Shown: in pieces, positions 10,627 through 48,052 of the stretch
Layout: the number at the start of each line of letters is the position of its first letter
How positions within the stretch are numbered: position 1 is the stretch's first letter
Virus record (IMG/VR): IMGVR_UViG_3300042509_001467
Span: 16,668 to 80,667 of that record
Source of the DNA: a virus
Direction: 5' to 3' (one strand)
DNA: 64,000 bases
Program-made: the position numbers and the translations under genes
The notes under the pieces: model-generated
The model's input: the letters and a program-made list of their open reading frames with translations, nothing else
Told to the model about the DNA's origin: nothing
Databases searched by the model: none

Positions 10627-10676
10627 CCTCACTCTCTATTTTCACGGGCTTGTGACCGTCCATGGCTAGATTAAGG
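10627..10676 (-). ncRNA. Twister self-cleaving ribozyme, type P1
   Basis: Minus-strand RNA CCU-UAA-UCUA-GCC-AUGG-ACGG-UCACAAGC-CCGU-GAAAA-UAGA-GAGUG-AGG. P1 CCU/AGG, P2 UCUA/UAGA, P4 ACGG/CCGU; loop CAC pairs with GUG and GC pairs with GC for the two pseudoknots; invariant UAA and GAG in L1. Predicted cut U10673/A10672. Confidence 0.93.
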
Positions 10677-10702
10677 GTGCCAGGTGCTAACCTGGCATAG
10701 TG

Positions 10703-11119
10703 TTACTTGATCTTTGAGAGTGTCCAGCCATCCTCAGTCTTGCCATTGAATGTCTGCTCTAGAGTCCAGCCCAATTCTTTAAGCGCGTTGATCACTGATG
10801 ATTCACCCGCTGCCGAGGTTCGCGCGATCTTGTTATGCTCATCGCTTCCATGAGTGTAAATCCATCTTAGAAAATCTGCCATGACTGCCGAGGTCTTGCA
10901 ATACCCATACCCGCTGGCATACGCTACCTTTTCGCCTCGATGGTTACTGATTCGCGGGCATGACCCCCAGGTACTAGACTTGTTGTAGCTGATTGCGAAT
11001 CCGGCGCGTCCAGTGCCGTACTCTGAGTTGATTTGATTTACTAACACTTGCGCGTATTCTTGTGCGCGTAATTCAAGCGTCGTTAGTTTAGGTGTTTTGG
11101 TTGTTGTTGTATCGCTCAT
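10703..11119 (-). CDS. Conserved early protein (homolog of 47666..48052)
   Basis: S.TWG..P, ASG.GY.K.SA, L.W, EH.KI..AG, AL.E.G..LE shared with the phage B gene. Confidence 0.8.
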   Translation of the reverse strand: MSDTTTTKTPKLTTLELRAQEYAQVLVNQINSEYGTGRAGFAISYNKSSTWGSCPRISNHRGEKVAYASGYGYCKTSAVMADFLRWIYTHGSDEHNKIARTSAAGESSVINALKELGWTLEQTFNGKTEDGWTLSKIK

Positions 11120-11155
11120 TTGGTTTATCCTTAGTCTTGATTGCTGGTCATTGCG

Positions 11156-11410
11156 TTAGTTTTGTACGCTCATGTGGTCACTGTAGCTGCTCAGATACTC
11201 CTGCAGGTACTCAGGGTCATTATCACGCTTTGCGGCCGCTATCTCTGAGCGAATCTCTTCCATGTCCCCGGCATCGTCTATAATCACTGAGCGTTTACCC
11301 TGGCTGATTTGGTAGTAATGGCATCCGAACCGGTTTACTAGCTTAACTGTATATTTGGTCTTAGGTCGCGCCACTGTAAAGAGTGAACCGTTCAGGTATT
11401 CCGGTGTCAT
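11156..11410 (-). CDS. Hypothetical early protein
   Basis: Start at MTPEY overlapping the upstream stop. Confidence 0.55.
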   Translation of the reverse strand: MTPEYLNGSLFTVARPKTKYTVKLVNRFGCHYYQISQGKRSVIIDDAGDMEEIRSEIAAAKRDNDPEYLQEYLSSYSDHMSVQN

Positions 11411-11853
11411 ACAACACCCCACATCTCTTGCCCGTCCACGTACAATGTCATATTGCCATGATCTGAGACCACCAGGTAAGTACCCGATGGATCGTCTGGC
11501 AATTCGTCGCACTTGATCAAATCGCCATCGTAAATGTCATGTTCTAGACTCTCTTGGCTGATCCAATACCCGAAGTCTGAACCATCTCCCTCATGCGCTC
11601 CAAAGTACGCGTATGGTGGTGCAATAGCGTTCATCTCATCGAAGAGAATGTCATTCAGGTACTCGTCCAGTAGGTCATCGTCCCCAACCTCCTCATCAGT
11701 TAGGCGATTCAATGCATCCTGAATCTCTTCGGGTAGCGTGAAGGATGAATTGTACTCTTTGAGTACGTCCACGAAGTCAGGAATGAGATCGGCTGCGATG
11801 TGCGTACCATGTGAGATGGTGCCGAGTGGTGCGAATTGTTTTGATCGTGTCAT
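11407..11853 (-). CDS. Acidic conserved phage early protein
   Basis: GTISHGT..DLIP.F; APPY.YFGAHEGDGSDFGYW; VSDHGN; GGAGGA RBS. Confidence 0.75.
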   Translation of the reverse strand: MTRSKQFAPLGTISHGTHIAADLIPDFVDVLKEYNSSFTLPEEIQDALNRLTDEEVGDDDLLDEYLNDILFDEMNAIAPPYAYFGAHEGDGSDFGYWISQESLEHDIYDGDLIKCDELPDDPSGTYLVVSDHGNMTLYVDGQEMWGVV

Positions 11854-12062
11854 TAAAATAGTCCTCCAAATTGGCAATGCTGCCGCATCTCTTTTTCGCT
11901 CATGGGCTCGCAAGTCATGCGCTCGATTGTTTCTAGGCATGATTGGTCCGACTTTTGGGACCAGAAACGCTTTAGATCGTCTAGGTCCTCTTGGTAAAAC
12001 CTGCTGCCGGGAGTGAGATGCTTCGAAGCTAGTTTAAAAGCTTTTTGCTGTAATCGTGTCAT
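11853..12062 (-). CDS. First gene of early operon, hypothetical
   Basis: GGATA RBS; preceded by a 5' hairpin and promoter. Confidence 0.6.
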   Translation of the reverse strand: MTRLQQKAFKLASKHLTPGSRFYQEDLDDLKRFWSQKSDQSCLETIERMTCEPMSEKEMRQHCQFGGLF

Positions 12063-12099
12063 TTTGGTTATCCATGCAGCTCGCCGAGCTACGTTTAAG

Positions 12100-12108
12100 A
12101 TATTAGCA
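12100..12108 (-). promoter_or_regulatory. Early promoter, extended -10 (TGC-TAATAT)
   Basis: Located ~40 nt upstream of the first leftward gene; leader begins with hairpin GUAGCUC/GAGCUGC. Confidence 0.6.
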
Positions 12109-12653
12109 CAGTATTTTCTAAACTGTATACTTCCGGTATCCTATTTTGTGCAAGTCAGGTATTTATACTGTATTCACTGAATACATTTATATTCAGATTT
12201 TTTTGTTTTTTGGAATATGAGCTTATTGCAAACAATTTGCAATAGTGTGATCCGACAATAAGCCAAGACGCCATTTGGTACGCGCTTCCAACCTTGTACC
12301 TATCCCTAGAAGTTCCGGCGCAGCTTTGTACCTTTTCTTGCGTGTATATAGTGTGTGGTACGTTTGTCTACACGTTTTACGTTAAAATTAATTCGTTCGA
12401 TTTCCTAATTGTTGCGTGTGCAAGTATTTAGGTAGGGGGTACGGGGGACGAGCGGTTGAATTGTAGGGTATGTACCCCAACACATATGCCGACCTATTTT
12501 CAATTACCCCTTGCTCGTACCTACTCTCGATCTCAAGTTCAATTCAGCCTACGTAGCGACAGCGAATGTAGGCGTGTATTTTTCTTTTGAACCTAAATCA
12601 AGTGCCATAACGTTATTCCAAGACTTTATTTAAAAACCTGGTAATTTTAACAG

Positions 12654-12682
12654 TAGACAAGGTTTTTTTTACCGGGTATATT
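12654..12682 (+). promoter_or_regulatory. sigma70-type promoter for the rightward (lysis/structural) operon
   Basis: TAGACA-17 bp-TATATT. Confidence 0.65.
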
Positions 12683-12942
12683 CCTTCCTATACAGACTGA
12701 GCGATAGCTTAGTCTGCCCGCGACTAGCGGGAGCCGCACCAAGCTCCGGATTACAAGCTTTCACCCACGCCCTGCTAATTCGCAGGGCGCAAGAAGCAAG
12801 CATAGTAGTTTAGCGTAAGTACAATAGGATGCTTAAAGTGGATGCTCAAAGTGAAGCTACGCCTGGATGTTTACCTTAGTTGTATACGGGTATTTACGAG
12901 TAATTAGAGTCTTTTAGGGGTTGTGACTCGTTCTTAGAGTTA

Positions 12943-13542
12943 ATGGGAGAATTAACACCAAGACAGAGGGAGTGGCTTGAAGAGGTGGATATGCCTAAGC
13001 CTGAGTCTATTAACACAGGGCGTAGCCCTGCTAGTAGGCAACTCTTGATTACAAGGCTCGGTCACCCTAGTGAGTTCTATACTACTAAGTGCGGGGTTGT
13101 GCAGCCAGGCTTACTGGCTGACCGGATTGTGACTCGGAGTGTTGGACCCTTTCGGGTGACTGGGCTTGATGTTGCGGTTGCTTGTCTTGCTTACGCTATG
13201 AAGCGGGTCAAGCAATATGAGTCAGAGTTGTACGGGATTCTTGGAAGTGCCGGGATGCTCTGCGTTCGCATGGTGCGCGGGGGTAACTCGCCTAGCATAC
13301 ATAGCTGGGGATGCGCTATTGACATCTTGATTGGCGGGAAGTTAGACGACTATGGAGACGGCAAGACCCTCAAAGGCTTGTTTGTCCTCCATCAGTACAT
13401 GAAGCAGGAGGGTTGGTACTGGGGCGCGGAGTTTCGTAAAGAGGATTCGATGCACTGGGAACTAGCCAATGACAGGTTGCAGACCTTACTCTCTTTGAGA
13501 GGTAAGGAGTTGCGTGACTACATCGCGGGAAGTAAAACATGA
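12943..13542 (+). CDS. Endolysin, M15-family metallopeptidase
   Basis: R..S.HSWG.AID and WG..F...D.MH.E motifs. Confidence 0.88.
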   Translation: MGELTPRQREWLEEVDMPKPESINTGRSPASRQLLITRLGHPSEFYTTKCGVVQPGLLADRIVTRSVGPFRVTGLDVAVACLAYAMKRVKQYESELYGILGSAGMLCVRMVRGGNSPSIHSWGCAIDILIGGKLDDYGDGKTLKGLFVLHQYMKQEGWYWGAEFRKEDSMHWELANDRLQTLLSLRGKELRDYIAGSKT

Positions 13543-13925
13543 AATTCAAAATCTATCTAAGCGTGAAGTTTCGTGCCTTTGGGATCACCTTTGGCACCGT
13601 GAAGAAGGAATGGGAGCGGGATTTACCCCGTGAGATCAAAGACGGCTTTGTTTTTAAGCCCATTAACGAGAAGGATGTCAAGGTCGAGATTGATTTAGAC
13701 CCGCTAGTGGAGGTCGGCAACGAGTTTAACACCCTGATTACTGCCACGGTCAAGTACCGAGTACCTATTTTCGGGTACTGGAACGAAATTCAGCAAGAAA
13801 CAGAGGTCAAATTTCCATCAACGGGTACGCATACCGCGATTAAAGAGCGCGGTATTAATCTGACCTACGAATGGACGCGAGTTGCTCCAACAATCTTGCG
13901 TGATACCGACAAGATTAAGCCTTGA
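13539..13925 (+). CDS. Hypothetical protein (internal two-fold repeat)
   Basis: PINEKDVKVEI vs AIKERGINLTY; FRAFG vs VPIFG. Confidence 0.6.
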   Translation: MKFKIYLSVKFRAFGITFGTVKKEWERDLPREIKDGFVFKPINEKDVKVEIDLDPLVEVGNEFNTLITATVKYRVPIFGYWNEIQQETEVKFPSTGTHTAIKERGINLTYEWTRVAPTILRDTDKIKP

Positions 13926-14407
13926 AGAAGCCTAGAGACGAGCATAACGACGAGTTAGGGGCTGATTTGCCAGCCGAGACGCCAGCCGTTCGCGGTGATG
14001 TGCTGATCGGCAAGGCGATTCCAGCCCTTGCTATGGGTACTTTGGTCGGCAAGTTTGTTGTCAAGGTCGCCACGGGCGAATTGACGATGGATGCGGCGAA
14101 GTATGACGTTGGCTTGCCCTCTACTTGGTTCCCAGACCTAGAGGTTCTGGCAATGATTGAAGAAGTCAAGTCCAAGTACGAGATCGGGCAGATCATGTCT
14201 GGACCAGTCGTGCTTGGCGAGATGTGGGAGATATACGCGGTGGCTAAGTTATCGGGCGATATGCGCCTTGCTTTGACTACCCTGAATATGATCTTGACGT
14301 GGGGATCAAAACTAGCCCCGCCAAAGAAGGCAGACATCGAGGGGCAACAAGCAATCTCTCGCTTTACCGTGAGTAGAGACGCAGACCCAAGAGCAAAAAA
14401 GAAATGA
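13922..14407 (+). CDS. Putative terminase small subunit
   Basis: Position immediately before TerL and size only. Confidence 0.45.
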   Translation: MKKPRDEHNDELGADLPAETPAVRGDVLIGKAIPALAMGTLVGKFVVKVATGELTMDAAKYDVGLPSTWFPDLEVLAMIEEVKSKYEIGQIMSGPVVLGEMWEIYAVAKLSGDMRLALTTLNMILTWGSKLAPPKKADIEGQQAISRFTVSRDADPRAKKK

Positions 14408-14414
14408 GAGTGTA

Positions 14415-15947
14415 ATGGATTGGCGAGAATTTAGATGTTGTAGCCCGGCGCAACGCCTCTTTCTTGACGCCTGTTTTGGCGTTGGGGTAAAGGCGCGTAC
14501 CGACGGGCGTACAAAACTCTATGTTCTCGGCGGTGGTGCTGGATTCGGTGGTAAGTCCTACTCAATCCGCACCGGAATCTTTGAGGCGGCTGTACGGCTT
14601 GCTGAGGCGGGAGTAAACAACCCATTGCAACTTGTATGCTGCCTCATGGAGACTGACCTTGAAGAGCGGCATATCAACAAGATTCTGCATAGCCAGGACA
14701 CGTACCCGCATGACGGCGAAGATATTGCTCGGCGTGGTCAGGACATCGGCTTGCTTAACGTTGGAACGCTAAAGCGTGAGGGTAAGAGCCAAGCCTGGAC
14801 ATTTACGTTTGAAGACCCGAAGCTAGGCAAGGTGTACTTTCGCCATGCCAAGAACCTAGACCGTAGAAAGGGTGCGGAGTACGATATGATCTGGGTGGAC
14901 GAGCTTACGCAGTTTGCCCGTGAGGATTTTGACTCCTTCAACTATATCCTTCGATCCTCAAAGAATCCCCCCTTCCTATCCTTCGTAGGCGTTACCAACC
15001 CTGACGGGCTTGGCAACTGGTGGGTGCGTAAGCTATGGGTTCCCGAGTTCCAAGACTTCTCAGACGAGAAGCTGACTAAGGAGCAGTTTGTCTTTGTACC
15101 CTTTAGGGCGACGGACAACCCGACCTTTAACGCTGACGTAGAGGCAACCCTGACCTCGGCATCGGACGTGATGGTCAAGAGCCGTTGGTACGGCGAGTGG
15201 GACATCATCAGCGGTATGCGCTTCCGGTTCCAAGAATCGGTGCATACCTTTACATGGCGCGACTTTGTAAAGTTCTACATGGGTAAGGAGTTTACGGATG
15301 CGCTGACTGATAGCATGGTCAATGACTATGCCCGGGAGCTATTGCTAGATGAGGAGCTTCTGGCGCATTACGCATCGTTTGACCCTGGTCTTGCTCATGC
15401 CTCCTTCCATATCCACGCCGTTGACAAGCATGGCAACGTTTGGACATGGCGTGAGCTTTACATGAACGACATGATTATCTTGGAGCAAGCTGACGCAATC
15501 CTCAAAGAACTTGCAGGGCTAAAGATCAGGAAGATGTTTGCTGACCCTGCGCTATGGGGCAGGGATCAGGGGACGGGGCTTGCCCGTGTATCTCAGTTTA
15601 GGAAGAAGGGGATCAACTTCTTTCCAGCGTACAACGACCGCATTAGCGGTTGGTCGCTGATAGACGAGAAGCTAGACCATAAGGGGCAACCAGGTACAGA
15701 AGGGTTTGTTAAGCCAAAGGCGATGATCCATTCTGGATGTAAGATGCTCTGCCACGGGTTACGGAACGCGCCAGCGAATAAGCATAACCCAGACGATATT
15801 GACCCTCAGTTTAAGGATGACCACGCACTAGATGACTACCGCTACTTTATTTTCTCACACTTCGGGAAACCAACCAACGCAAACAGGAAGAAATATGACA
15901 ACCAAAACAACAGAATCGAAGAAGGTTCAGCCCTTGCATCTCTCTAA
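14415..15947 (+). CDS. terL: Terminase large subunit
   Basis: GGGAGFGGKS Walker A, IWVDELTQF Walker B, TNP coupling motif, FDPG and DDHALDDYRY nuclease motifs. Confidence 0.92.
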   Translation: MDWREFRCCSPAQRLFLDACFGVGVKARTDGRTKLYVLGGGAGFGGKSYSIRTGIFEAAVRLAEAGVNNPLQLVCCLMETDLEERHINKILHSQDTYPHDGEDIARRGQDIGLLNVGTLKREGKSQAWTFTFEDPKLGKVYFRHAKNLDRRKGAEYDMIWVDELTQFAREDFDSFNYILRSSKNPPFLSFVGVTNPDGLGNWWVRKLWVPEFQDFSDEKLTKEQFVFVPFRATDNPTFNADVEATLTSASDVMVKSRWYGEWDIISGMRFRFQESVHTFTWRDFVKFYMGKEFTDALTDSMVNDYARELLLDEELLAHYASFDPGLAHASFHIHAVDKHGNVWTWRELYMNDMIILEQADAILKELAGLKIRKMFADPALWGRDQGTGLARVSQFRKKGINFFPAYNDRISGWSLIDEKLDHKGQPGTEGFVKPKAMIHSGCKMLCHGLRNAPANKHNPDDIDPQFKDDHALDDYRYFIFSHFGKPTNANRKKYDNQNNRIEEGSALASL

Positions 15948-16530
15948 GCAGAGAATACCTTTGCAGGTCTACGTCTCAATGCTTTCGATCCTTGATCAAG
16001 TATTGCGCGACACGGGGCGTATCCCGAGTGCAAAGCCCATCTTGTACGCGGGTGACGAGTGGCGCATCTCCTTTGTTCCAAACACAATCCATATCAACGG
16101 CATCATCACGGTCGAACGCTACCAGGGGCAACACGTCTCAGAGCAACTGCACCGCCGCATCGTTGAACTGGGTGAAGAGCGCGACAACCTTATCAGGAAG
16201 ATCAAGCCGCTATCGGTTTCGACCTTGCCACCAGAAGATAGTGACGCTTGGAAGGAGATGTCGGAGAACCGCAAGCTCAACATGAAGTACGAGCATGAGC
16301 GGCAGAAGAGGGCAAAAGATGTACCAACAACCCGCTTAGAGAATGTCAACAAGGAATATGATAGGCTTGCGGCTATGCAAGCCGAACTGACTATCGGGGT
16401 CAGTAGGTTTGACATTACGCTTGAAGACTTCCAGAAAGAGATTTGCACAAAGGATTCTGGACCGGGCAACTACCAAGTAGAGATGAACGTCAATCCCTAT
16501 GTAGGACTATCTGACAATGCCGATCTTTGA
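15895..16530 (+). CDS. Hypothetical protein
   Basis: AGGAAG RBS before MTTKT; fills the gap. Confidence 0.6.
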   Translation: MTTKTTESKKVQPLHLSKQRIPLQVYVSMLSILDQVLRDTGRIPSAKPILYAGDEWRISFVPNTIHINGIITVERYQGQHVSEQLHRRIVELGEERDNLIRKIKPLSVSTLPPEDSDAWKEMSENRKLNMKYEHERQKRAKDVPTTRLENVNKEYDRLAAMQAELTIGVSRFDITLEDFQKEICTKDSGPGNYQVEMNVNPYVGLSDNADL

Positions 16531-16840
16531 ATTTCAATCCCCGTCTGGCAGAATCTATGAGGAACTGTTTCCAGCAGGAAAGGCTCCTAAAGAGATGATC
16601 GTTGACGACAATGGTATGTCGGTCATCGCTAGACGGATTGTATCAAAAGTGAATTTCAATGATTGGAGTTTATCACGTCAGAGAGAAGAGTCTGAGGACA
16701 TGGCTTACCAAAAAGCGAGTTATCAGAATGACACTCATGCTTCGCTCGGCTATAATCCAGAGACGGGCAAAAACCATACGATGAAGAGCTATGCCGATGC
16801 AGGGCATGGCAAACCAGTGGGGTTATCCAAAGATTTATGA
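16517..16840 (+). CDS. FmdB-like protein lacking zinc-ribbon cysteines
   Basis: MPIFEF..SG..YEEL...RRIVS resembles the FmdB N-terminus; pre-portal position is typical. Confidence 0.5.
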   Translation: MPIFEFQSPSGRIYEELFPAGKAPKEMIVDDNGMSVIARRIVSKVNFNDWSLSRQREESEDMAYQKASYQNDTHASLGYNPETGKNHTMKSYADAGHGKPVGLSKDL

Positions 16841-18618
16841 ACAGCTACCCAATAAGCAAGAAGTCCATTATCAATATGGCTGAATCGGCGGTAAGCCTCA
16901 CCTACTACGACCGCGCATGGGTACTCAAAATGTTCATGTGTGGGCAGTACGACTTTGGCAAGTCGCTTGCCGATCAAAGTGTACGCAAGTGGTCATCGGG
17001 CAGCACAGGCGATATTTTGCCAACCTACCCCGATGCAATCACAACCGACCAACCAGTAGGCGTCCAGAACTACGGGCTTGTCAACTCGCGCTATAACGTC
17101 CAGCGCATTGTATTTGCGGATGCAAGGTTCTCGTTTGACTTTGAGGATTCAAGAGAATCCGAGGTCAACAACGCATGGCTCAAAAAGATGTGGAGCCTTG
17201 GATCATGGTCTACCCCATTCATGGATGTGTGCTTTAGCTTTGAGCAGAACGGGATCGGGTTTGCCAAGTGCGGCGTATTGCCAGACGGAAGGATTCACTG
17301 GAAGTTTGTAGACCTGCACAACTGTATCTGGGATCATGAGACTCGGAACCCTAACGAGTACCGATGGTACATTACCCGCGACTTTCTCTCTATCGCAGAC
17401 GCGGCGGCAAAGTACGGTCACCTATTCTATGACCCCGTTCTAAGCGAGGTCGAAAATGGCAAGAACATTGTCTCCGAGATTGAGAGGTTAGCGACTAACG
17501 TTAGCTTTGAGAACGGGCAAGCCCGTGGAACCTGGAAGCAGTTAGTGGAGTGGGAGTACAACTCCTATGATAAGCACTGCGTCATTCTAGGCGATCTGCG
17601 TACCGGGCGCATGGCAAACTGGGACGAGAATACTGGTAAGTACCAATGGGCTAATACTGGCGGTAGCGACCTTGACGATCTTGCAGGACCACAACCGTTT
17701 GACTGTATCCCTATCGCAAAGATGTGGGACATCATTGTACCAGGTCGCGCTAGACCCGTAGGCAAGGCAGAGTTCACAATCTCGCAAGCCTCTAGGATGA
17801 ACCAGCTAGAGAGCGCAATGGGCGGCATCATTGATAACGCGCCACCGCTTAACGGTATCGCCATGAACCTGATTACGCCTGAGATGAAGAAGAAGCTCGA
17901 AGATGCAATCAGTATGGGTAACACCGATCCAAAGGAGATTATGAAGCTCATTGCCTTTGAGACGGACGATATTAAGAACGGCATTGTGCGCTTACCAGGA
18001 GCCGAATTCCCAGTATCTATGCTCCAGCTTAGAGGCGAGATGGCGAGAGAGATGACTGCCAGCACCGGGGTTAACGATAACGATAGGGGCAACACCTTAG
18101 ATGGTGACCGTGTTACCGCCCGTGAGGTTAGTACGATCAACTCTAAGACCGACGTTCAGCCAGGTCATATCCGTAAGCAGTACGCCGAGTTCTTGCAAGA
18201 GATCGCTAAGATTTCTCGTAAGGTAGGCGCGAAGTATTCGCGCTGGCAAGGCGCGATCTACTACGAGGCAGAAGGCTCTTTGCTCCAACTTGACCTAACA
18301 CGTTACCCGATCCATGTCTTCTTAAAGAAGGAGGCAGAGGTAACCGTATCGCCTGAATCCGTAGAGGGCTTGACCACCGAAGCGCGGCAACAGAAGCGTT
18401 TGCAACGGTTCGTCAACCTTGATTCGGTAGCGATGCAGATGGGCGTCGTTGACGCCGTAAAGGTATTTAAGGACGTATACCGCGCCTTTGGCGTGAATGA
18501 GTTTGACGCATTAAGACCCGACCAGCAAGCGGCGATGCCACCAGGTATGCCACCAGAAGGCGGGCAAGACCCAACAGCAGCACTTAACGAGGCACGAGGA
18601 ACACAACCACAATCATGA
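16837..18618 (+). CDS. Portal protein
   Basis: 593 aa after TerL; GIGFAKCG, TGVND..RG..TARE motifs of P22/T7-like portals; Q/M/P-rich tail. Confidence 0.85.
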   Translation: MNSYPISKKSIINMAESAVSLTYYDRAWVLKMFMCGQYDFGKSLADQSVRKWSSGSTGDILPTYPDAITTDQPVGVQNYGLVNSRYNVQRIVFADARFSFDFEDSRESEVNNAWLKKMWSLGSWSTPFMDVCFSFEQNGIGFAKCGVLPDGRIHWKFVDLHNCIWDHETRNPNEYRWYITRDFLSIADAAAKYGHLFYDPVLSEVENGKNIVSEIERLATNVSFENGQARGTWKQLVEWEYNSYDKHCVILGDLRTGRMANWDENTGKYQWANTGGSDLDDLAGPQPFDCIPIAKMWDIIVPGRARPVGKAEFTISQASRMNQLESAMGGIIDNAPPLNGIAMNLITPEMKKKLEDAISMGNTDPKEIMKLIAFETDDIKNGIVRLPGAEFPVSMLQLRGEMAREMTASTGVNDNDRGNTLDGDRVTAREVSTINSKTDVQPGHIRKQYAEFLQEIAKISRKVGAKYSRWQGAIYYEAEGSLLQLDLTRYPIHVFLKKEAEVTVSPESVEGLTTEARQQKRLQRFVNLDSVAMQMGVVDAVKVFKDVYRAFGVNEFDALRPDQQAAMPPGMPPEGGQDPTAALNEARGTQPQS

Positions 18619-19442: not shown

Positions 19443-19444
19443 CA

Positions 19445-20599: not shown

Positions 20600-20628
20600 G
20601 GTCTTTTAACCAAACACCTCCACAGCCA

Positions 20629-36247: not shown

Positions 36248-36273
36248 GGCGGCTCAATCGCCTCAGTATATAG

Positions 36274-39569: not shown

Positions 39570-39604
39570 TTGTTTCCTCGTCGCCGTGTTGCGGCTCACG
39601 TTTT

Positions 39605-39730: not shown

Positions 39731-39735
39731 AGGTT

Positions 39736-40002
39736 GTGATGACAGACAAAACACTCCCGCCTCTCCCGGCAATGCACTTCAGCGGAGTTGATTCTATCGT
39801 GCAGATTGAGATATGGAAGCGCGAAGGATACACCGCCGATTACATTGCTGGAGCGTTTGGGTACACCAGACAAGGGCTAAATAAGAAGATTAAACGAACA
39901 AAAGCCGCCCTAGAACAGAGCGGCGGCACTACCACCACCGACGAGGAAGAAGGCGGCAAGCACCGACATTCTACCTCACCGACAGACGAGGAAACACAAT
40001 GA
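39736..40002 (+). CDS. Small HTH regulator
   Basis: GYTADYIAGAFGYTRQGLNKKI HTH pattern. Confidence 0.65.
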   Translation: MMTDKTLPPLPAMHFSGVDSIVQIEIWKREGYTADYIAGAFGYTRQGLNKKIKRTKAALEQSGGTTTTDEEEGGKHRHSTSPTDEETQ

Positions 40003-40256
40003 ACGTACCAAAGAAATATAAAGCGGCAATCGTCGCGCCTGGTTTCAGGAATGATGAAATCTATGAGGCGGCAAGCCAAAACTACATGAGGAAGATCAAT
40101 GCGATTGAGGAGAAGTATGCACTTCAAATACCTAGGGGGTCGCACATTGACGCGCACGTAAAGCACGACGACTGGTGCAGGGCTTTAAATGGCGGCGTAG
40201 GTTGCAACTGCAATCCTGACGTCTCTATCACAGTCAATGGAGTCACGTACAAATGA
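39999..40256 (+). CDS. Hypothetical protein (H..WC..C.C metal-binding motif)
   Basis: HDDWC..GCNCNP. Confidence 0.6.
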   Translation: MNVPKKYKAAIVAPGFRNDEIYEAASQNYMRKINAIEEKYALQIPRGSHIDAHVKHDDWCRALNGGVGCNCNPDVSITVNGVTYK

Positions 40257-40849
40257 ATAATCTATATCCCAGTCGCATTTTAGCGATTGACGTCGAAACA
40301 ACCGGGCTAAACTCCCAATACGACTACATTACTCAGATCGGCGCGGTAGTGATGGAGGACGGCAATATCGCTGGAGAGCCGTTCTATACCCGCGTACAAC
40401 CGAACCTAGGCAAAGCCAAGATCAGCCTTGAAGCCTTAGCGGTGCAATCTGGCGACATAACCACTCCAGAGGGATTCAAAGCCGCAACCGACCTCATGCA
40501 AGCGTGGGTTGACGCTCCAAGTGCAAAAGACGTTGCCGCGTTATTCGCTACATGGCTCGGCACTACTCCACCGCCGACGGTTGCCTTCAATGCGGGGTTC
40601 GACATGGGCTTTCTGTCTCAATGGATGTTCCAGCAGAAAGCCTCGTTTGGCAAAACCAATCTAAGCCCGATCACGATTTGCCCGATGGTGATGGCGAAAG
40701 CGGTCTACCCTGGCGGCAAGCAATACAACTTGGATGCAGTTCTTATTCTATGCGGTTTACCGCCACGTCCAAAAGCGCACGATGCGCTCCAAGACGCGAT
40801 TCTAGCTGGACAAGCCTACTTTGTATTGCGGGAGAAACTTAATGGCTGA
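40253..40849 (+). CDS. DEDDh 3'-5' exonuclease (DnaQ-like)
   Basis: IDVETTG, FNAGFD, HDALQDA. Confidence 0.92.
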   Translation: MNNLYPSRILAIDVETTGLNSQYDYITQIGAVVMEDGNIAGEPFYTRVQPNLGKAKISLEALAVQSGDITTPEGFKAATDLMQAWVDAPSAKDVAALFATWLGTTPPPTVAFNAGFDMGFLSQWMFQQKASFGKTNLSPITICPMVMAKAVYPGGKQYNLDAVLILCGLPPRPKAHDALQDAILAGQAYFVLREKLNG

Positions 40850-41522
40850 TCCAAAAGCAGTAACCGAGAAGATTGTTGCGGTGGTTGAGCCGTCCAGTCT
40901 AGCCTACAAGCTCGGCAAAATCTCTCAGCACATCGGCACGATTGAGAAGAATGGCGAGAACAAGCACTTTAAGTTTATGTACCAAGCGTGGGACGACGTT
41001 CTGCCTCAGTTACGGGAAGCGTGTACCACCTTTAACGTTTGGATCGTGCCTACGATGCTTGAAACAAAGATGCACACGGGGAACGCTGGGAAGATGTTCT
41101 ACGAAGCCCGCGTAGCCCTTAGAGCCGTGGACATGGTAACGGGTGAATCTGAAACCGTGGAATGGGTAGGGTTAGCCGATGCAAGCGACGATAAAGCCCC
41201 TCAGAAGTGCGGAACTCAGGCATACAAGTACGCGGCATTAAAGCTGTTTATGATCCCTGCAAGGGATGACACGGATAGCGACGGACACGCGCCAAAAGCT
41301 GCACAACCAGCGGCGGCAAAGCCTACCGCGCTTGATACGTTTATCACCAAAGCTGGAGAGCCAGGAGAGGGCGATTTAGAGACGCTTAACAAGCTCTGCA
41401 TGGGTGACGACGGGGTGCTAGATAAAGCCGTCAGGAAGACGTTTCTAGTGAACGCAATGGCTAAAGGCGTGAAGACATGGGCGGCACTACTTGAAGGAAT
41501 CAGAGAAGACAAATTCAGTTAG
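40842..41522 (+). CDS. ERF-family single-strand annealing protein
   Basis: K.GEN.HFKF.Y..DDV; DDKA.QK..T.AYKY...LF.IP..DD.D. Confidence 0.85.
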   Translation: MADPKAVTEKIVAVVEPSSLAYKLGKISQHIGTIEKNGENKHFKFMYQAWDDVLPQLREACTTFNVWIVPTMLETKMHTGNAGKMFYEARVALRAVDMVTGESETVEWVGLADASDDKAPQKCGTQAYKYAALKLFMIPARDDTDSDGHAPKAAQPAAAKPTALDTFITKAGEPGEGDLETLNKLCMGDDGVLDKAVRKTFLVNAMAKGVKTWAALLEGIREDKFS

Positions 41523-41748
41523 ACATGACGGCGCGGATAACGAGTTTATCTACTTTAGCGTGAACTCCGAATCCCTGCCAAACACGACGTATTCGATTCT
41601 GATTGGACGGCATGACGGAACGGTGTTATGCGATTGCCCCGACGCAAGGTTTAGAACTCTCGTTGGCTACGTTCATAAGGAATCCACGACCTGTAAACAC
41701 GTCCGCAGATTGAAGCTGTGGATTGAGGAAAACATAAACAATGAATAG
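41491..41748 (+). CDS. SWIM zinc-finger protein
   Basis: CDCPD...CKH. Confidence 0.75.
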   Translation: MKESEKTNSVRHDGADNEFIYFSVNSESLPNTTYSILIGRHDGTVLCDCPDARFRTLVGYVHKESTTCKHVRRLKLWIEENINNE

Positions 41749-41941
41749 ATTCGTAACGTTACAAACCCCGTATGGTGGGAAGGTTGTAGTAAACGCCTTC
41801 AACATCCTTTACTTTCATAATTCACGCAATGACCGGGTAGAAATCTTTTTCTCGGGAATCGCTGAACCGCTGGAAGTTGAAGGTGATTATGATTCAGTCC
41901 GAGATGAAATCTGGAGCGAAATGGAGGAAGCAAATGGTTAA
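41741..41941 (+). CDS. Hypothetical protein
   Basis: GAGGA RBS; operon packing. Confidence 0.65.
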   Translation: MNRFVTLQTPYGGKVVVNAFNILYFHNSRNDRVEIFFSGIAEPLEVEGDYDSVRDEIWSEMEEANG

Positions 41942-42323
41942 TAGAGTAGTGATAGTTGGACGCCTAACCCGCGATCCTGAAATGAAAACCACCAGCACGG
42001 GTAAAGCCGTTGTTGAAATCTCCGTAGCGGTGACAAAGAAGTTTAAGCCGCAAGACGGTTCACCGGACGCTGACTTTTTCCGGGTTCAGGCGTGGGAGAA
42101 AACCGCCGAGTACATCAGCAACTACCTTACTAAAGGTCGGCTGGTAGCCGTGGATGGACGCCTAACCACCCGTAAATGGACAAAGGACGGGATTGAGCGT
42201 GAGGTTGTGGAGATTGTCGCTGATTCGGTGCAATCTCTGGATAGCCCAAAGGATGACGCGCCAAAGACGAAAGGTACTTCAAAGGTTGCCGCCGACATCG
42301 AAGACATCTTCGCAGACGAATAA
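41934..42323 (+). CDS. ssb: Single-stranded DNA-binding protein
   Basis: Close paralog of 1475..1882; GGAGG RBS. Confidence 0.95.
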   Translation: MVNRVVIVGRLTRDPEMKTTSTGKAVVEISVAVTKKFKPQDGSPDADFFRVQAWEKTAEYISNYLTKGRLVAVDGRLTTRKWTKDGIEREVVEIVADSVQSLDSPKDDAPKTKGTSKVAADIEDIFADE

Positions 42324-42335
42324 GGAAAAACAACT

Positions 42336-42686
42336 ATGTCAAAAAACTTTTACCAAACCCCCGCCGGGATGAAGGCGATTGAAAAATTTATCACTATTGA
42401 GGCAGATATTCCAGACGCTGACGGCTATTGGATTCGGCATCATAAAGAAAGAGGCTCATGGGCTATCTGCGAGGTGGAGATGCTCAACGAAAGCAGGGCG
42501 CACATTACGACTGGCGCACCTAGCAAATACTCCTATGTACTCAAGCCCATTGACGCGAACAGTGATAAGGTTACTTATACTGGACCGTTTAAGCAGCTTA
42601 AAGAGGCTTCGATTTACCGCAAGGCGTTTCAACCAAGCGATGATGTTGTGCGGAGTTTGGCGCGAAATCTGGAGGCGGCATCGTGA
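42336..42686 (+). CDS. Hypothetical protein
   Basis: AAGGA RBS. Confidence 0.65.
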   Translation: MSKNFYQTPAGMKAIEKFITIEADIPDADGYWIRHHKERGSWAICEVEMLNESRAHITTGAPSKYSYVLKPIDANSDKVTYTGPFKQLKEASIYRKAFQPSDDVVRSLARNLEAAS

Positions 42687-43069
42687 CCACAATTACCGTA
42701 CCGCCACCAAGCCGAGTCCTAAGCCCTAACGGTGATAAGCACCATTGGACTAAGGTTAGCAAAGCAAAAAAGGAGCATCGTTCACTCGTTGCTATTTTAG
42801 CTAAACAACAACAAGCCGCTCCCATATCGGGGGCGGTTGAGATACAAGTAGATTGGTACATGGCGAACAAATCCTTTTATTGCCCGATGGACAATCAAAA
42901 CGCCATCTCCGCATTGAAAGCCGCTATTGACGGCATTGTGGACGCGGGGATCATTGAGGACGATAATCGTAAGATTGTCAAGGCAATCTACCCTGTTACG
43001 CTATACCGAACGCGCAAAGAGCATCAGGGCAGAAGTGAAGTAGTGTTCACGATTCGGAGGGCGGCATGA
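42683..43069 (+). CDS. rusA: RusA-family Holliday junction resolvase
   Basis: LSPN..HW; MDNQN...LKAAIDGIVDAGIIEDDN. Confidence 0.85.
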   Translation: MTTITVPPPSRVLSPNGDKHHWTKVSKAKKEHRSLVAILAKQQQAAPISGAVEIQVDWYMANKSFYCPMDNQNAISALKAAIDGIVDAGIIEDDNRKIVKAIYPVTLYRTRKEHQGRSEVVFTIRRAA

Positions 43070-43431
43070 GCAATCCTTTTTTTGCCGAGTTTTTCGGAGT
43101 AGGTAATTTAGCTGAGGCGCAAAAGTTTACGCGAAGTGAGCAAACACCTTATGATGACCGGATGCCCGAGACTGACCACTTTGAGAACCATCCCGTAGGT
43201 ATTCGGATGTTCGATGCCACGGCGCGTCCTGTTGGTAGACCAAGAGGCAGAGGAGGGGTTCACCGTGTACCTTTGACGACGTTAGAGCAAAGCATCTGGG
43301 ATCAGGTGCAGGAGGGAATTGCTCCAAGGTTTATTGCCGAGAATCACGGCTTAACTTGGAGCCAAGGACAAAAGGAAATTGTCCGGATTAAGGGCAAGAT
43401 GCTCATGCGAGAAAGGAGAGCAAGAAAATGA
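43066..43431 (+). CDS. DNA-binding protein (AT-hook-like plus LuxR-type HTH)
   Basis: RPVGRPRG; LT.LE..I....EG.....IA...GLT. Confidence 0.55.
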   Translation: MSNPFFAEFFGVGNLAEAQKFTRSEQTPYDDRMPETDHFENHPVGIRMFDATARPVGRPRGRGGVHRVPLTTLEQSIWDQVQEGIAPRFIAENHGLTWSQGQKEIVRIKGKMLMRERRARK

Positions 43432-44018
43432 AAGATATTTATATTTCCCGTGAGGAATTGTACGTACCATGTCCAAGCCCGGAGTATGACCGCGTGTTTG
43501 AGAAGCTAATGAATAAATGGTGGAAGCCTTTATTGAGTTATGCCTACGATCTGGCGAAACGGTTTGAAGTGGCGCGTGAGCTTCACACAGACGCAATGGC
43601 TAAGATGTGGCGCAACCGTCATAAGTTAGCGCGGCTTTATAACTTCTATAAGTGGGCTAAACAGTTGATGCAACGCCTTTACATTGACGAGATGCGTAGA
43701 TTTTGGGCGCATCAAAGGCATATTTTTGACGGGTTTAAGTCGTCGGATGATGACTCGGAAACCTTCCCTGGCGAACTAACCATTTACACAGACAATGGCA
43801 GGTTCAGTAAATCCATACAAGACGCAATCTTTGTAACTCAGCTTACAAGTTTACTTACTGACGAAGAAAGGGCGATTGTGAAACTCACTTACTCTGACCA
43901 ACTTAGCGCGGATGACGCGGCAAAGGAATTGAATATCACCACTCCAGCACTTAAAAGCAAACTCTACCGGAGCCTAAGAAAAATGAAGCAAATCAGCGGG
44001 GCGGCTGGATATGTTTGA
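43428..44018 (+). CDS. ECF-type RNA polymerase sigma factor
   Basis: Region 2 (L..YAY.L....A.EL..D...K.W....F.KW......YIDE.R) and region 4 (L.DEERAIV.L......S..D.A..L.I....KS.LYR). Confidence 0.85.
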   Translation: MKDIYISREELYVPCPSPEYDRVFEKLMNKWWKPLLSYAYDLAKRFEVARELHTDAMAKMWRNRHKLARLYNFYKWAKQLMQRLYIDEMRRFWAHQRHIFDGFKSSDDDSETFPGELTIYTDNGRFSKSIQDAIFVTQLTSLLTDEERAIVKLTYSDQLSADDAAKELNITTPALKSKLYRSLRKMKQISGAAGYV

Positions 44019-45321
44019 CGAATACATTCCCGTACACTCGAAAGAAGCGGAGATGTGCGTTCTTGGCTCAATGATGCTATCTGAGAAGGCAATCTCTGAG
44101 GTGGCGCAACTGATCACTGCTGAGGACTTTTACCAACCAAGTCATAAGCTAGTGTTTCAGGCGATCCAGCAGCTTGCCGCTAAGGGTTCAGCCGCCGACC
44201 TGGTAACCGTCCGAAACTCTCTGCAAGAATCGGGCAGCCTCGAAATGTGCGGTGGCGTCCCGTACTTGGTCGAGGTCGCCAACTCCACACCGAGCGCACT
44301 TAACGCGAGAGAGTACGCGGAGATTGTCAAGGAAAAATCTTTGATGCGAAGCCTTGAATCGGCGGGACAAGAGATAATCAGGCTATCGCGTGATCCAGAG
44401 CTATCTATCAGCCAGCGGGTAGACAAGTCGCTTGACCATATCGTAGCCGTGGCGAACAACAAGCCGAGCGCGGTAAGCAGGTCATCAATCCACGACGTTA
44501 GCACGAGGGTACTTGCGGACGTTGACGAGATGTTTGACACGGGCATACCTAAGCAAGGCATAAGCAGCACGTTCAGGGGCATTGACTACTACACGGGCGG
44601 AATATACCCGGGCGAATACTGGATTATCGGAGCCAAGCCCGGAATGGGTAAAACCGCCATGCTCATCTCTATGGCAATCGCCCTGGCTAAGTCTGGCGTT
44701 CGCGTGATGATCTTTAGTCTTGAAATGACAGACGAGCAACTTACCATCAGAGCCATTAGCCAAAGATCGGGAGTACCCGTAAACGTCATCAGGAAGCCCA
44801 TTAAGACCGATGCGGAGTACAACCGGGTGAGAGACGCGGCAGAAGAGTTGAGAACGCTTCCTATCGAAATTATTGATGCAAGCGGAATGACCATCGAAGG
44901 CGTCACGGCGCTAGTGAAAGGTTTGCACCAGAACGAACTTCCGGGCGTGGCGATGATTGATTATCTCCAGCTACTTAAAAGCACGAAGCAATTCAGGGGG
45001 GAAACTGAACTTATGTCGCACGTTAGCTCATCAGTGAGAGAACTTGCTAAGGCTACGCAAGTACCCTTTATCGGTCTGGCACAACTTAGGCGCGATGATG
45101 CAAAGGCTCCAGAGAAACGACCAGGGCTTTACGACCTGAAAAACACCAGCCAATTTGAGCAGGATGGACACGTTATCGGGTTTCTCCACCGGGACAAGGA
45201 GTACCAAAACGCAACCGTGCCTATGGAGTTTATTATTGCCAAGAATCGAAACGGTGAGGTCGGAACCGTCACTCTCGGGTTTATTAAGCAAACAACTCAG
45301 GTGGTGAATCCTGCCGTGTGA
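44011..45321 (+). CDS. dnaB: Replicative DNA helicase DnaB
   Basis: GAKPGMGKT, FSLEM, IDYLQL, AQL.R, DL..T..FEQD, KNRNG. Confidence 0.95.
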   Translation: MFDEYIPVHSKEAEMCVLGSMMLSEKAISEVAQLITAEDFYQPSHKLVFQAIQQLAAKGSAADLVTVRNSLQESGSLEMCGGVPYLVEVANSTPSALNAREYAEIVKEKSLMRSLESAGQEIIRLSRDPELSISQRVDKSLDHIVAVANNKPSAVSRSSIHDVSTRVLADVDEMFDTGIPKQGISSTFRGIDYYTGGIYPGEYWIIGAKPGMGKTAMLISMAIALAKSGVRVMIFSLEMTDEQLTIRAISQRSGVPVNVIRKPIKTDAEYNRVRDAAEELRTLPIEIIDASGMTIEGVTALVKGLHQNELPGVAMIDYLQLLKSTKQFRGETELMSHVSSSVRELAKATQVPFIGLAQLRRDDAKAPEKRPGLYDLKNTSQFEQDGHVIGFLHRDKEYQNATVPMEFIIAKNRNGEVGTVTLGFIKQTTQVVNPAV

Positions 45322-45376
45322 TAACGAATAACGAACCCACTGAAACTATTTTCACCCGGATATTGTATATTTAGAT

Positions 45377-45691
45377 ATGGAAAGAATTTTACCTAAACAA
45401 GTTTACATAAACTTTGAAGCGACTCGGAAAATGGCTGGGAAGGGCAGGGACTCTGGATACCTTACTGGCATAGCAATTTATTTCGGAATGAGGTTTGTTG
45501 CAACGGTCCCAGAAATCGCTTCAAAGCTAAAGGTAACCCCTAGGACAGTTTATGGGTTTCTCAACAGGAATGATGGTGGAGCCATCACGGTAAACCGTAG
45601 AGCTGCACAAGACGGCGGGACGTTGCCGTCCGAGTACGTTCTGAATACAGACTTTATTAGATTGGACATGGAAGAAGATGGACAAGGTTAA
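45377..45691 (+). CDS. HTH DNA-binding protein, probably leaderless
   Basis: TVPEIASKLKVTPRTVYGFL; TATATT 5 nt before ATG. Confidence 0.7.
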   Translation: MERILPKQVYINFEATRKMAGKGRDSGYLTGIAIYFGMRFVATVPEIASKLKVTPRTVYGFLNRNDGGAITVNRRAAQDGGTLPSEYVLNTDFIRLDMEEDGQG

Positions 45692-46547
45692 ATCCGAAAT
45701 GGTGGCACTGATTCCGTTTTGGGTGCTTCAGGTTTGCGAAAACAACCAGTATCTTGCGGTTTACTCAGCCTTAAAGTCATTCACCAGCGCAGATCAGCAG
45801 GCGTTCCCGTCTCGGGCTAGGATTGCGAAACGCGCCAGGGTGAGCGTCGTTACTGTGGCTAGGGCGTTGAAGTTTTTTCAGGAGGTTGGAGCCGTCGTGG
45901 TCGAACACCAGTACCACAACAATATGCAGACCGTTTCGCTTTACACGATGCTCATAGACCGACCCAAGAAGTACGAAAATCTGCGCTTCAAAGACCAGCA
46001 AGACGGTGTATCTCCAGAGACACAGCGGTGTATCTCCAGTGATCTACCCGGTATATCTCCCCAGATACACAGAACTAAATCCATAGAACTAGAACCAATT
46101 AAAGAAAAAGAAAAAATACTAAAAGAAAAAGAACCCACGCCAAAAGCAGAGGTCGTTGAAGAGTTTGTTGCCAAGGTAAGAGCCATCTACCCCAAGCGGA
46201 GCGGGAACATGGGATGGAAGTATTTCACTCAAAGAGCCGCGACTCATTTCAAGACTGCCAAGAGTAAAGATGATTTTCTCTTAGCGGTTGCGAACTACAA
46301 GAAAGAGTGCGCCGAGCTTGGAAGGGGTCCAGATTTTATAAAGCAGCCAGCCTCATTCATAGCCGCACACTACGACTACATCACCTCACCCCAGGAGCAA
46401 GAATCCGTCTTTGATGGGGTTAAGTTTGAATCAGGGTGGGGCGATACTCCAAGTAAGCAAGTCAAAATTGCGCCCTGGTCGGAAATGAAGTCTCAGCCAT
46501 CAAGAAAGGTACTCACGATGGATGATGTAGACACGGCGCGGGAATAG
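45678..46547 (+). CDS. Replication initiator (lambda-O/DnaD-like, N-terminal winged HTH)
   Basis: VY.AL.SF....AFPS...IA.....S..TV.RAL..F...G; internal iterons; C-terminal YPKR...FIKQP.SF. Confidence 0.8.
   Translation: MDKVKSEMVALIPFWVLQVCENNQYLAVYSALKSFTSADQQAFPSRARIAKRARVSVVTVARALKFFQEVGAVVVEHQYHNNMQTVSLYTMLIDRPKKYENLRFKDQQDGVSPETQRCISSDLPGISPQIHRTKSIELEPIKEKEKILKEKEPTPKAEVVEEFVAKVRAIYPKRSGNMGWKYFTQRAATHFKTAKSKDDFLLAVANYKKECAELGRGPDFIKQPASFIAAHYDYITSPQEQESVFDGVKFESGWGDTPSKQVKIAPWSEMKSQPSRKVLTMDDVDTARE
46004..46135. repeat. Putative replication origin: three iterons plus A-rich tract
   Basis: CGGTGTATCTCCAG at 46004 and 46026, CGGTATATCTCC at 46049, then an A-rich run ~46100-46135. Confidence 0.75.
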
Positions 46548-46644
46548 AATTGCCCCGTTTTGCCGTCTACGCGCTGTTTCTAGGCGTTCTGATGCCCTTC
46601 CCGTCTCTGAACACGGGTGGCAAAGTAGAGGCGGCTTAAACGCG

Positions 46645-46685
46645 AAAAACAAAACCCCGCCCTAATTGGGCGAGGTGTTTCGTTG
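46645..46685. terminator. Bidirectional terminator at convergence
   Basis: CGCCC-TAATT-GGGCG with A-tract on the left and T-rich sequence on the right. Confidence 0.6.
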
Positions 46686-46805
46686 TTTGGCTAAGAAGCG
46701 GGATATTCTAGCAGCTTCCTCGGGGGTGCAAACCCACCAGTATTGTTTCGATCCTGGTGGGTGTTTGCGAGGGCGTCCTCGTGGTTTCTTTGGCGGTTCG
46801 GTCAT
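46662..46805 (-). CDS. 47-aa AT-hook peptide (not in ORF track)
   Basis: MTEPPKKPRGRPRKHPPG...; start overlaps the upstream stop. Confidence 0.6.
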   Translation of the reverse strand: MTEPPKKPRGRPRKHPPGSKQYWWVCTPEEAARISRFLAKQRNTSPN

Positions 46806-47038
46806 GGATTCCATTCCAAGATTCCAGGGTTTTCACCTGTGTCTACGTCACCAGGCACTACTCCTGCAATTAAGCTCAATGGAATTTCTACTGGGGTTCG
46901 ATTTGCGCCGCAGTTTCTGACGATTGCGACTAAATCATCTTGCCCATCACTGTGAGGGATTGAGAACGAATGAGCTTTGTACCATGTCGTTTCGTCTTTC
47001 CATGTGATGCCTACTAGAATGTTTTGTGGTTGGTTCAT
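46802..47038 (-). CDS. Hypothetical early protein
   Basis: GGAGG RBS before MNQPQ. Confidence 0.6.
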   Translation of the reverse strand: MNQPQNILVGITWKDETTWYKAHSFSIPHSDGQDDLVAIVRNCGANRTPVEIPLSLIAGVVPGDVDTGENPGILEWNP

Positions 47039-47241
47039 TGATTTCCTCCGTAAACGTAAGCCGCCTTGCACTCCATGAATTGAGTTTGGGTTACCGATGA
47101 TCCACACTCTTCACGAATGGCGTTCACGTCGGCAGATCGTCCAGCACCAGGGATGCTGAAATAGTGGCAGAGAATGAAGATGAATGCAGAGGCTAGAAAG
47201 ATGCCTAGCGTGGCGAGTAGAGTTAGTTCGATTTTATTCAT
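47035..47241 (-). CDS. Small membrane protein
   Basis: N-terminal TM helix; AGGTAA RBS. Confidence 0.65.
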   Translation of the reverse strand: MNKIELTLLATLGIFLASAFIFILCHYFSIPGAGRSADVNAIREECGSSVTQTQFMECKAAYVYGGNQ

Positions 47242-47253
47242 TTGGTTTTACCT

Positions 47254-47288
47254 AACCTCTTTTCGAGGTCGAGGGAGCGAACCCCCTC
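47254..47288 (-). ncRNA. Tandem-hairpin RNA element before RBS
   Basis: GAGGGGG-UUCG-CUCCCUC directly followed by GACCUC-GAAAA-GAGGUU. Confidence 0.5.
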
Positions 47289-47298
47289 CGCACGGTTT

Positions 47299-47598
47299 TC
47301 ACGCCTCGGATTGTTCAGCTTGACCCCAGTCTTTACACAAGTCGTTCCAAATGTCGTAGGTGTCGTTGTCACCAGGGCAAACTTCAAAGGGCTTGCCCAT
47401 GTCGTAGTTAAAGCAAGTGATTTGAACTTGCTTACCTGATTCTAGGCTTCGGTCAATGCTAATCTTAATGATTGCGTGATGGGCGCTAAATCTGCTTGTA
47501 TACTTGCCGCATTCCGAGTGGACGGCTTTAATCACGTTACCTAGTTGCAGATCAGAAGCGGAGCAGGAAAATGTTGAGTGGGAGATAGATGTTTTCAT
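47299..47598 (-). CDS. Hypothetical early protein downstream of the hammerhead
   Basis: AGGTAA RBS. Confidence 0.65.
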   Translation of the reverse strand: MKTSISHSTFSCSASDLQLGNVIKAVHSECGKYTSRFSAHHAIIKISIDRSLESGKQVQITCFNYDMGKPFEVCPGDNDTYDIWNDLCKDWGQAEQSEA

Positions 47599-47610
47599 TT
47601 GGTTTTACCT

Positions 47611-47665
47611 TTGCCTGGCTCTTCAGTTAGGGGCGGCAATCCCTAAGACCCCGAAGGGTTTCGCC
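47611..47665 (-). ncRNA. Hammerhead self-cleaving ribozyme, type II with pseudoknot
   Basis: Minus-strand RNA GGC-GAAA-CCC-UUCG-GGG-UC/-UUAGGG-AUUGCCGC-CCCUAA-CUGAAGA-GCC-A-GGCAA. Full CUGANGA and GAAA core, GUC cleavage triplet, loop-I UUGCC pairs with 3' GGCAA. Predicted cut C47647/U47646. Confidence 0.95.
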
Positions 47666-48052
47666 TTAGATTCTGGTTAAGTTGTAGCCAATCTCATTCT
47701 TGCCGTAGTATGTGCGCTCCAGCAGGTATCCACACTCTTTCAGGGCGTCGCATAGGGAATTGATACCAACGCCAGCGCATGAGCTAATCTTGCCATGCTC
47801 AGCCGTGCCACGCTCAAAAAGCCATTTGAGAGAGTAAGCAAGGCAAGCGGAGTGCTTATCATAGCCGCAACCACTAGCAGAAGCCAGCTTGATACCGCCG
47901 ATGGTGTAGACCGTGGGGATGTTGCCCCATGTGCGGGATGATGTAAAGACTACGCCAAGTTGAATTGTGCCGCCTGACTTTTGGATTAGGTTTTGGGAGA
48001 GGAAAAAATCTTGGATTCGGGATTCGGTTGTGTTGAGTTTTTGAGTTTTCAT
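47666..48052 (-). CDS. Conserved early protein (homolog of 10703..11119)
   Basis: SRTWG.IP, ASGCGYDKHSA, LKW, EHGKI..AGVG. Confidence 0.8.
   Translation of the reverse strand: MKTQKLNTTESRIQDFFLSQNLIQKSGGTIQLGVVFTSSRTWGNIPTVYTIGGIKLASASGCGYDKHSACLAYSLKWLFERGTAEHGKISSCAGVGINSLCDALKECGYLLERTYYGKNEIGYNLTRI

Follow-up and report, generated by a model that had tools for sequence, protein, structure and literature searches.

Twister and hammerhead ribozyme motifs at the same position after homologous genes in two lake-water phage gene sets, and their recurrence in the gene family

The DNA studied here, referred to below as the window, comprises 64,000 nucleotides (nt; bases 16668-80667) of the 80.7-kb virus record IMGVR_UViG_3300042509_001467 in IMG/VR, and the two open reading frames (ORFs) of interest, 10703..11119 and 47666..48052, are both located on its minus strand. 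The contig carries two phage gene sets, one at ~1-39000 (A) and the other at ~40000-64000 (B). Set A includes helicases on the minus strand and a large terminase at 14415, and set B includes DnaB at 44011, a replication initiator at 45678, and a head-tail adaptor at 52545. Near-identical DNA is contained in many lake-water metagenome runs, with no RNA run among those listed. The explanation that we favor, and hold to be likely as a whole, places the genomes of two different lake-water phages on a single contig, each with a small leftward operon carrying a member of the same gene family. The two sets each have their own replication and structural genes and could be tandem phages or an assembly join.

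The phage A family member (10703..11119, minus strand, 138 amino acids), taken from the ORF list, carries the motif W.KS.TWG..P ... ASGCGYDK.S, and the phage B member (47666..48052, minus strand, 128 amino acids) is identical to the cluster representative P0004. They share 41% identity over 130 amino acids in BLASTP (E 5e-29), confirming the clear homology claimed in a preliminary description of this DNA. The same description placed a self-cleaving ribozyme of a different class directly after each gene and the next ribosome binding site (RBS) after each ribozyme, with predicted cuts about 30 and 19 nt past the stop codons. Our analysis agrees on each of these points: a twister motif lies at 10626-10677 and a hammerhead motif at 47609-47666, ATG 10618 and ATG 47598 follow them directly, and the predicted cuts fall at 10673/10672 and 47647/47646. 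Both motifs conform to the sequence and structure rules of their classes, the genes are homologous, and their homologs are enriched in downstream ribozymes, as described below. Judged from their sequences, the homologous genes are followed at the same position by motifs of two different classes, both of which are credible as ribozymes.

The element in phage A (10626..10677, minus strand) is a type-P1 twister motif without P3, recognized by the Rfam model RF03160 (52 bits), by a descriptor match, and by direct reading. The RF03160 match spans model positions 1-68, with an E value of 2.9e-10 in a 1.8-kb search and 1e-8 over the whole window, and a search of genome collections with this model returned the same element at E 3.1e-12. 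P1 is CCU/AGG (3 base pairs, bp) and P2 is UCUA/UAGA, the stems are in type-P1 order, and an N|AA cut site is located in the internal loop between P1 and P2. P4 is ACG(G)/(C)CGU with the loop UCACAAGC. Both pseudoknots could be read from the sequence: in T1, C10654 A10653 C10652 pair with G10632 U10631 G10630 (CAC:GUG), a two-sided change relative to the consensus CCC:GGG, and in T2, G10649 C10648 pair with G10666 C10665 (GC:GC). The T1/T2 pairing rule is also kept with other letters at three loci of the homolog survey (L070, L294, and L317). Cleavage is predicted at U10673|A10672 A10671, 30 nt past the stop codon. P1, P2, P4, the U|AA site, and both pseudoknots are the same as in the type-P1 twister (RF03160; Roth et al., 2014, as summarized in PMC6765202), from which the element differs in its T1 letters and in having 5 nt instead of P3. 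An 8-bp hairpin, UGCCAGGU-UAGC-ACCUGGCA (10678..10697, minus strand), which appears in the minimum free energy (MFE) fold of 10620-10702(-) (z -2.95), ends 4 nt before the predicted cut. At the other end, the 3' P1/T1 strand overlaps the next RBS (GAGGA), and the next ORF (10520..10618, minus strand), coding for a basic peptide of 32 amino acids, starts at ATG 10618, 7 nt past the twister.

The element in phage B (47609..47666, minus strand) is a type II hammerhead motif that begins at the last base of the stop codon, and was matched by its descriptor and by RF02276 (26.7 bits, E 0.0066 in a 1.2-kb search). A whole-window search at E <= 1 did not list it, and an RF02276 search of genome collections also missed it and was not used for the census described below. 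The core is intact (CUGAAGA, GAAA, GUC|, open stem II), with stem I formed by UUAGGG/CCCUAA (6-7 bp), stem II by GGC/GCC (3 bp), and stem III by ACCC-UUCG-GGGU (4 bp). The cut is predicted after C47647, 19 nt past the stop codon, and loop I (UUGCC, 47639-47635) can pair with the 3' tail (GGCAA, 47615-47611) in a 5-bp pseudoknot. The hammerhead fold has a computed energy of -15.4 kcal/mol against -16.1 kcal/mol for the MFE structure, with the pseudoknot not counted. ATG 47598 and its RBS follow directly after the element. The 3-bp open stem II, GAAA, GUC, CUGANGA, and the 5-bp pseudoknot are those of the type II hammerheads described by Perreault et al. (2011; PMC3088659; RF02276). A near-identical gene at locus L002 is also followed by the same hammerhead, which is invariant in four lake-water metagenome DNA runs while the 5' part of the gene varies; these four runs hold no variants of the hammerhead and yielded no covariation. 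The formation of circular or excised RNA was considered and ruled inapplicable, as each window operon has a single ribozyme.

Rfam at gathering thresholds gave zero matches in the window and in L001-L020, so that all ribozyme evidence in the window is sub-threshold. Rule-based descriptors built for the hammerhead and the twister both recover the window elements and gave 0 matches in ~1.5 Mb of shuffled locus sequence. A loose regular expression for the twister loop gave hundreds of matches and was of no use. A descriptor for ribozymes resembling that of hepatitis delta virus (HDV) gave 127 matches in shuffles versus 243 in real sequence, and was left out of the statistics because it was unspecific.

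Homologous loci were collected from viral and metagenome contigs, with an 18-sequence alignment as the query for the metagenome and genome collections. The family genes in these loci were found by hidden Markov model and grouped into 92 clusters at 80% identity. The slot was defined as a ribozyme start within -6..+45 nt of the family stop codon. It held a hammerhead (type I or II) or a twister in 5 of the 28 usable close clusters and in 2 of the 60 distant ones (7/88 in total), and in 5/86 usable clusters when the window cases were left out. Same-strand hammerheads or twisters were found within the fetched flanks (up to 1.5 kb) in 16/92 clusters. Ribozymes were present at 5 of 75 family gene ends and at 4 of 598 ends of the other genes in these loci (odds ratio 10.6, p 0.0013). 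A comparison of this kind had been proposed in the preliminary description as a check on its reading, and an enrichment downstream of the homologs was indeed found. With more than one ribozyme class and an odds ratio of 10.6, the family is a ribozyme-associated gene family in the sense of Roth et al. (2014) and Weinberg et al. (2015).

The filled slots hold several classes. Besides the hammerhead shared by window B and L002 (RF02276 and descriptor), type II hammerheads were found by descriptor at L034/L071 and at L093 with 39.4 bits, over the cut-off; the latter has a GGCC:GGCC pseudoknot between loop I and tail. Besides the window A twister, twisters occupy the slots of L070 (33.4 bits, T1 and T2 both covarying) and L294 (44.3 bits), and a type I or RAGATH-1 hammerhead (31.2 bits) occupies that of L331. 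Other ribozymes are located off the slot: just upstream of the gene at L083 and L295, one gene downstream at L073/L082 (40.8 bits for the L082 hammerhead), L075, L321, and L332, and further upstream at L074, L306, and L317. The descriptor matches to hammerhead and twister are on the strand of the gene, except for one doubtful 100-nt type III match (L003). At L093, two near-identical type II hammerheads, L093:209-272 and L093:1133-1196 (+), with 39.4 and 39.0 bits, flank an 860-nt block after the family gene. Most homologs that lack a ribozyme carry in the same slot a hairpin that is long, very stable, and free of a U-run, as in the first 40-90 nt past the stop codon at L091/L092, L006, L088, L076, and L074. 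The L091 spacer has a z of -8.4, and L091 and L092 retain the spacer although the downstream gene differs.

At L001/L031, where a 48%-identical homolog is followed by a 100-nt spacer in the slot, the spacer RNA is probably an HDV-like ribozyme, to judge from its sequence and predicted pairing. The spacer of L001 could be folded with a 7-bp P1 (CCCUGCU/GGCGGGG), a 7-bp P2 pseudoknot (UCAGCAC/GUGCUGA; unscored), a 3-bp P3, and a 4-bp P4; the core reads CAC-ACC-U..ACG.-GGU, J4/2 (UCCAA) contains C, and P1.1 has only 1 bp. Its core, 7-bp P1 and P2, P4 hairpin, C in J4/2, and pre-cut hairpin are common to the Faecalibacterium prausnitzii-type HDV-like ribozyme (RF02682), and a hairpin right before the cut site is also present in genuine phage HDV-like ribozymes. 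It differs in its single P1.1 pair and in scores far under the cut-off of 44 bits (12.8 bits, E 3.2 in 161 nt, a weak match to RF02682), and the locus is outside the window. Genuine phage examples of the RF02682 class were also obtained by a core-pattern scan of viral contigs, and eight of them were used for a covariance model. This phage-derived model matched L031 in the slot with 19.0 bits (E 0.12 over 745 kb), the second-best match of 100 sources. An assignment of the L001 spacer as a twister was rejected, given that it has no P4 to close the loop and no RF03160 match.

Two further observations were made with the HDV-like searches. The best match of the phage-derived model, L295:1491-1534 (+), with 20.4 bits, is without the whole P3/L3 core and shares only the hairpin and GGGCAA..GCUAAGA; it is an odd partial look-alike and no ribozyme candidate. 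In addition, F. prausnitzii-type HDV-like ribozymes were found directly after a tRNA 3' end at L187:5871-5947 (+), identically at L199 and L213, and also at L226. At L187 a second tRNA begins ~10 nt past the ribozyme, and the ribozymes may generate tRNA ends within a phage tRNA array.

The window operons contain other elements of note. As the preliminary description had proposed, the stacked-hairpin spacers of both operons are real structures. In phage A, a structured intergenic spacer of 74 nt (9662..9735, minus strand; MFE -28.8 kcal/mol, z -3.9) precedes the RBS of ORF 9234..9650, with no Rfam match at E <= 10. In phage B, two adjacent hairpins, one of 7 bp with a UUCG loop and one of 6 bp with a GAAAA loop (47242..47298, minus strand; fold z -2.2), follow ORF 47299..47598, with no Rfam match. 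The linker GGTAAAACCAAATG, which contains the RBS, follows these hairpins and also the hammerhead. The otherwise near-identical L002 (compared region L002:3385-3460) lacks both the 99-amino-acid ORF 47299..47598 and the two hairpins after it. The difference between window B and L002 is a one-gene cassette, lost or gained, between the repeated GGTAAAACCAAATG linkers. The family gene of phage B is the first gene downstream of a sigma-70-like promoter match (48175..48202, minus strand; ATGACA-16-CATAAT, 10/12), and an intrinsic-terminator-like site with a 9-bp stem and a U-run (46654..46676, minus strand) would end the short leftward operon; both sites are consensus matches only. The description of the genes as early or first-expressed, based only on gene order and this one promoter-like site, goes too far.

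The protein family itself is large and without recognizable relatives. A profile search with the family gave 645 clusters of relatives at E <= 1e-3, which occur in short forms of ~125 amino acids and in longer forms with N-terminal extensions. The family had no match in Pfam and PHROG, and an Atlas search for its protein function gave no usable match. A match by sequence in the PDB to 8h2i 'P22' was dropped, since 25 residues were too short. The phage A member gave a confident AlphaFold2 model (predicted local distance difference test score, pLDDT, 95.6), for which Foldseek found no match in the PDB. A wide structural search with VIA-align gave a best Z of 4.8, within the noise range of the tool (Z below 5), and the weak neighbors (Z 3.4-4.8) were small nucleic-acid-binding folds, namely R3H, IF3-C, Alba, and KhpB.

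Taken together, we consider it probable that the ribozyme after the family gene cuts the operon RNA, and that the family is one of those with recurring ribozymes of several classes, with a slot that is filled in some lineages, empty in most, and coincides with a mosaic junction. Several observations weigh against this reading. The window A twister (52 bits) is under the RF03160 gathering cut-off of 67.2 bits and the window B hammerhead (26.7 bits) is under the RF02276 cut-off of 37; in the former, the deficit results from the missing optional P3 together with the T1 change, and a default Rfam scan is silent in consequence. The computed MFE structure in phage B is not the hammerhead fold. The control gene ends came from a crude greedy gene caller, and the two window cases had prompted the hypothesis. 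About 80% of the close homologs have no recognizable ribozyme, and in many homologs the stop codon is followed directly by nothing more than a long hairpin lacking a U-run, so that the gene does not require self-cleavage. One or both motifs could be inactive look-alikes or decayed relics, with the spacers being only structured intercistronic elements, and the sub-gathering scores, the mere 3 bp of both twister P1 and hammerhead stem II, and the plain hairpins at the same place in many homologs are consistent with this. We nevertheless consider it unlikely. Every core position that we compared with the Rfam consensus and with the published rules for the classes is in place; the sequences allow both twister pseudoknots as well as that of the hammerhead, and T1 is altered on both sides. 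Moreover, a short stem II is normal in natural type II hammerheads (PMC3088659), the descriptors were silent in the shuffled sequence, and the hammerhead is constant over the four metagenome runs in which the 5' part of the gene is variable.

The distribution of the ribozymes raises a different question, namely whether they mark or hitch-hike at exchangeable cassette junctions, the family gene merely lying often at such places, at the beginning of a small accessory operon or close to it. L070, with a twister, is sister to L084, with none (support 99/96), and L070, L084, and L079 can be aligned up to 'TAACCCC' and are unrelated past it. This breakpoint, the one-gene cassette between repeated RBS linkers in window B and L002, and the ribozyme states, which cluster on the protein tree (itself poorly resolved) no more than shuffled labels do, indicate that the slot is also a mosaic junction and that the ribozyme is facultative. 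The ribozymes located upstream of the gene or after the next gene point in the same direction, as does the report that the genes flanked by phage hammerheads are not constant (Perreault et al., 2011; PMC3088659). This reading is possible but, in our view, doubtful, as the family slot holds ribozymes about ten times as often as do the ends of other genes in these loci, and the association spans distant subfamilies and several ribozyme classes. The same observations temper the preliminary description, in which the conserved position was taken to imply selection for cleavage at this exact point: with ~80% of the slots empty, off-slot ribozymes, scattered states, and mosaic breakpoints at the gene end, that wording is too strong. 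The description also linked ribozyme processing to the protein family, for which we found no evidence tying the function of the protein to RNA. The protein and the cut RNA might form one functional unit, for example if the protein binds or acts on the hairpin-capped 2',3'-cyclic-phosphate or the 5'-OH end, and the association itself and the nucleic-acid-binding folds among the structural neighbors would fit such a role. However, those neighbors are all in the noise range of the search, the family has no Pfam, PHROG, or PDB relative, and the ribozyme is missing in most homologs, which makes a functional unit very unlikely.

If the ribozyme after the family gene does cut the operon RNA, it would probably act on the polycistronic RNA during transcription, splitting off the message of the family gene. 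The upstream product would end in a stable hairpin and a 2',3'-cyclic phosphate. The capping hairpin would be the separate one at 10697-10678 in phage A and stem III of the hammerhead with its UUCG loop in phage B, with a similar hairpin in L001 and in the genuine HDV-like examples. The downstream product would start with a 5'-OH and the folded ribozyme body, followed by the next RBS. Such a cut would make the family gene independent, in stability and translation, of the genes that follow it. We infer both the cutting in vivo and its effect on mRNA processing. A broader proposal is that the family marks a general RNA punctuation slot, in which at least one of the stable spacers belonging to no known family (L091/L092, L088, L081, L086, L076, L095, L006) could be an undescribed self-cleaving class, or in which the protein acts on ribozyme-made ends; this seems improbable to us.

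The principle is established. Type II hammerheads in which loop I and the 3' tail form a pseudoknot, and multiple gene-flanking hammerheads in prophages, were described in 2011 (PMC3088659); the clustered hammerheads flank prophage genes and cut polycistronic transcripts in vitro (PMC3088659). A role in polycistronic cutting is proposed, not proven, for phage hammerheads (PMC3088659, PMC6765202), and what hammerhead and twister ribozymes do for bacteria and phages has yet to be settled (PMC6765202). The setting in the window, between small phage genes on the same strand, and the proposed cutting of polycistronic RNA are the same as for the prophage and phage hammerheads of Perreault et al. (2011; PMC3088659). 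In contrast to their clustered hammerheads, the window has one ribozyme per operon, no flanking pair, and a score below the cut-off, and the gene family beside the ribozymes is defined in this work.

Associated genes have served to find ribozymes before. According to the summary in PMC6765202, the twister became known as a ribozyme through associated genes shared with hammerheads (Roth et al., 2014), and the accounts in PMC4604425 and PMC6765202 describe the RAGATH strategy, in which ribozyme-associated genes used as bait led to pistol, hatchet, and twister-sister (Weinberg et al., 2015). The RAGATH motifs, as presented in PMC11061315, include hammerhead and HDV variants. In the preliminary description the family gene was proposed as a bait for new ribozyme classes. 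The idea itself is that of the RAGATH strategy as these sources describe it and is not new. The added value lies in a defined protein family in whose 3' slot hammerheads of types I and II or twisters are found, together with one probable HDV-like example. This family is compact and clearly delimited, and in its members the same position can be taken by a hammerhead (type I or II), by a twister, by a probable HDV-like RNA, or by a plain hairpin, or can be empty. The survey also yields a short list of structured spacers without a known family as candidates for cleavage. The family is a natural comparison set for the effect of the cut on the expression of the flanking genes.

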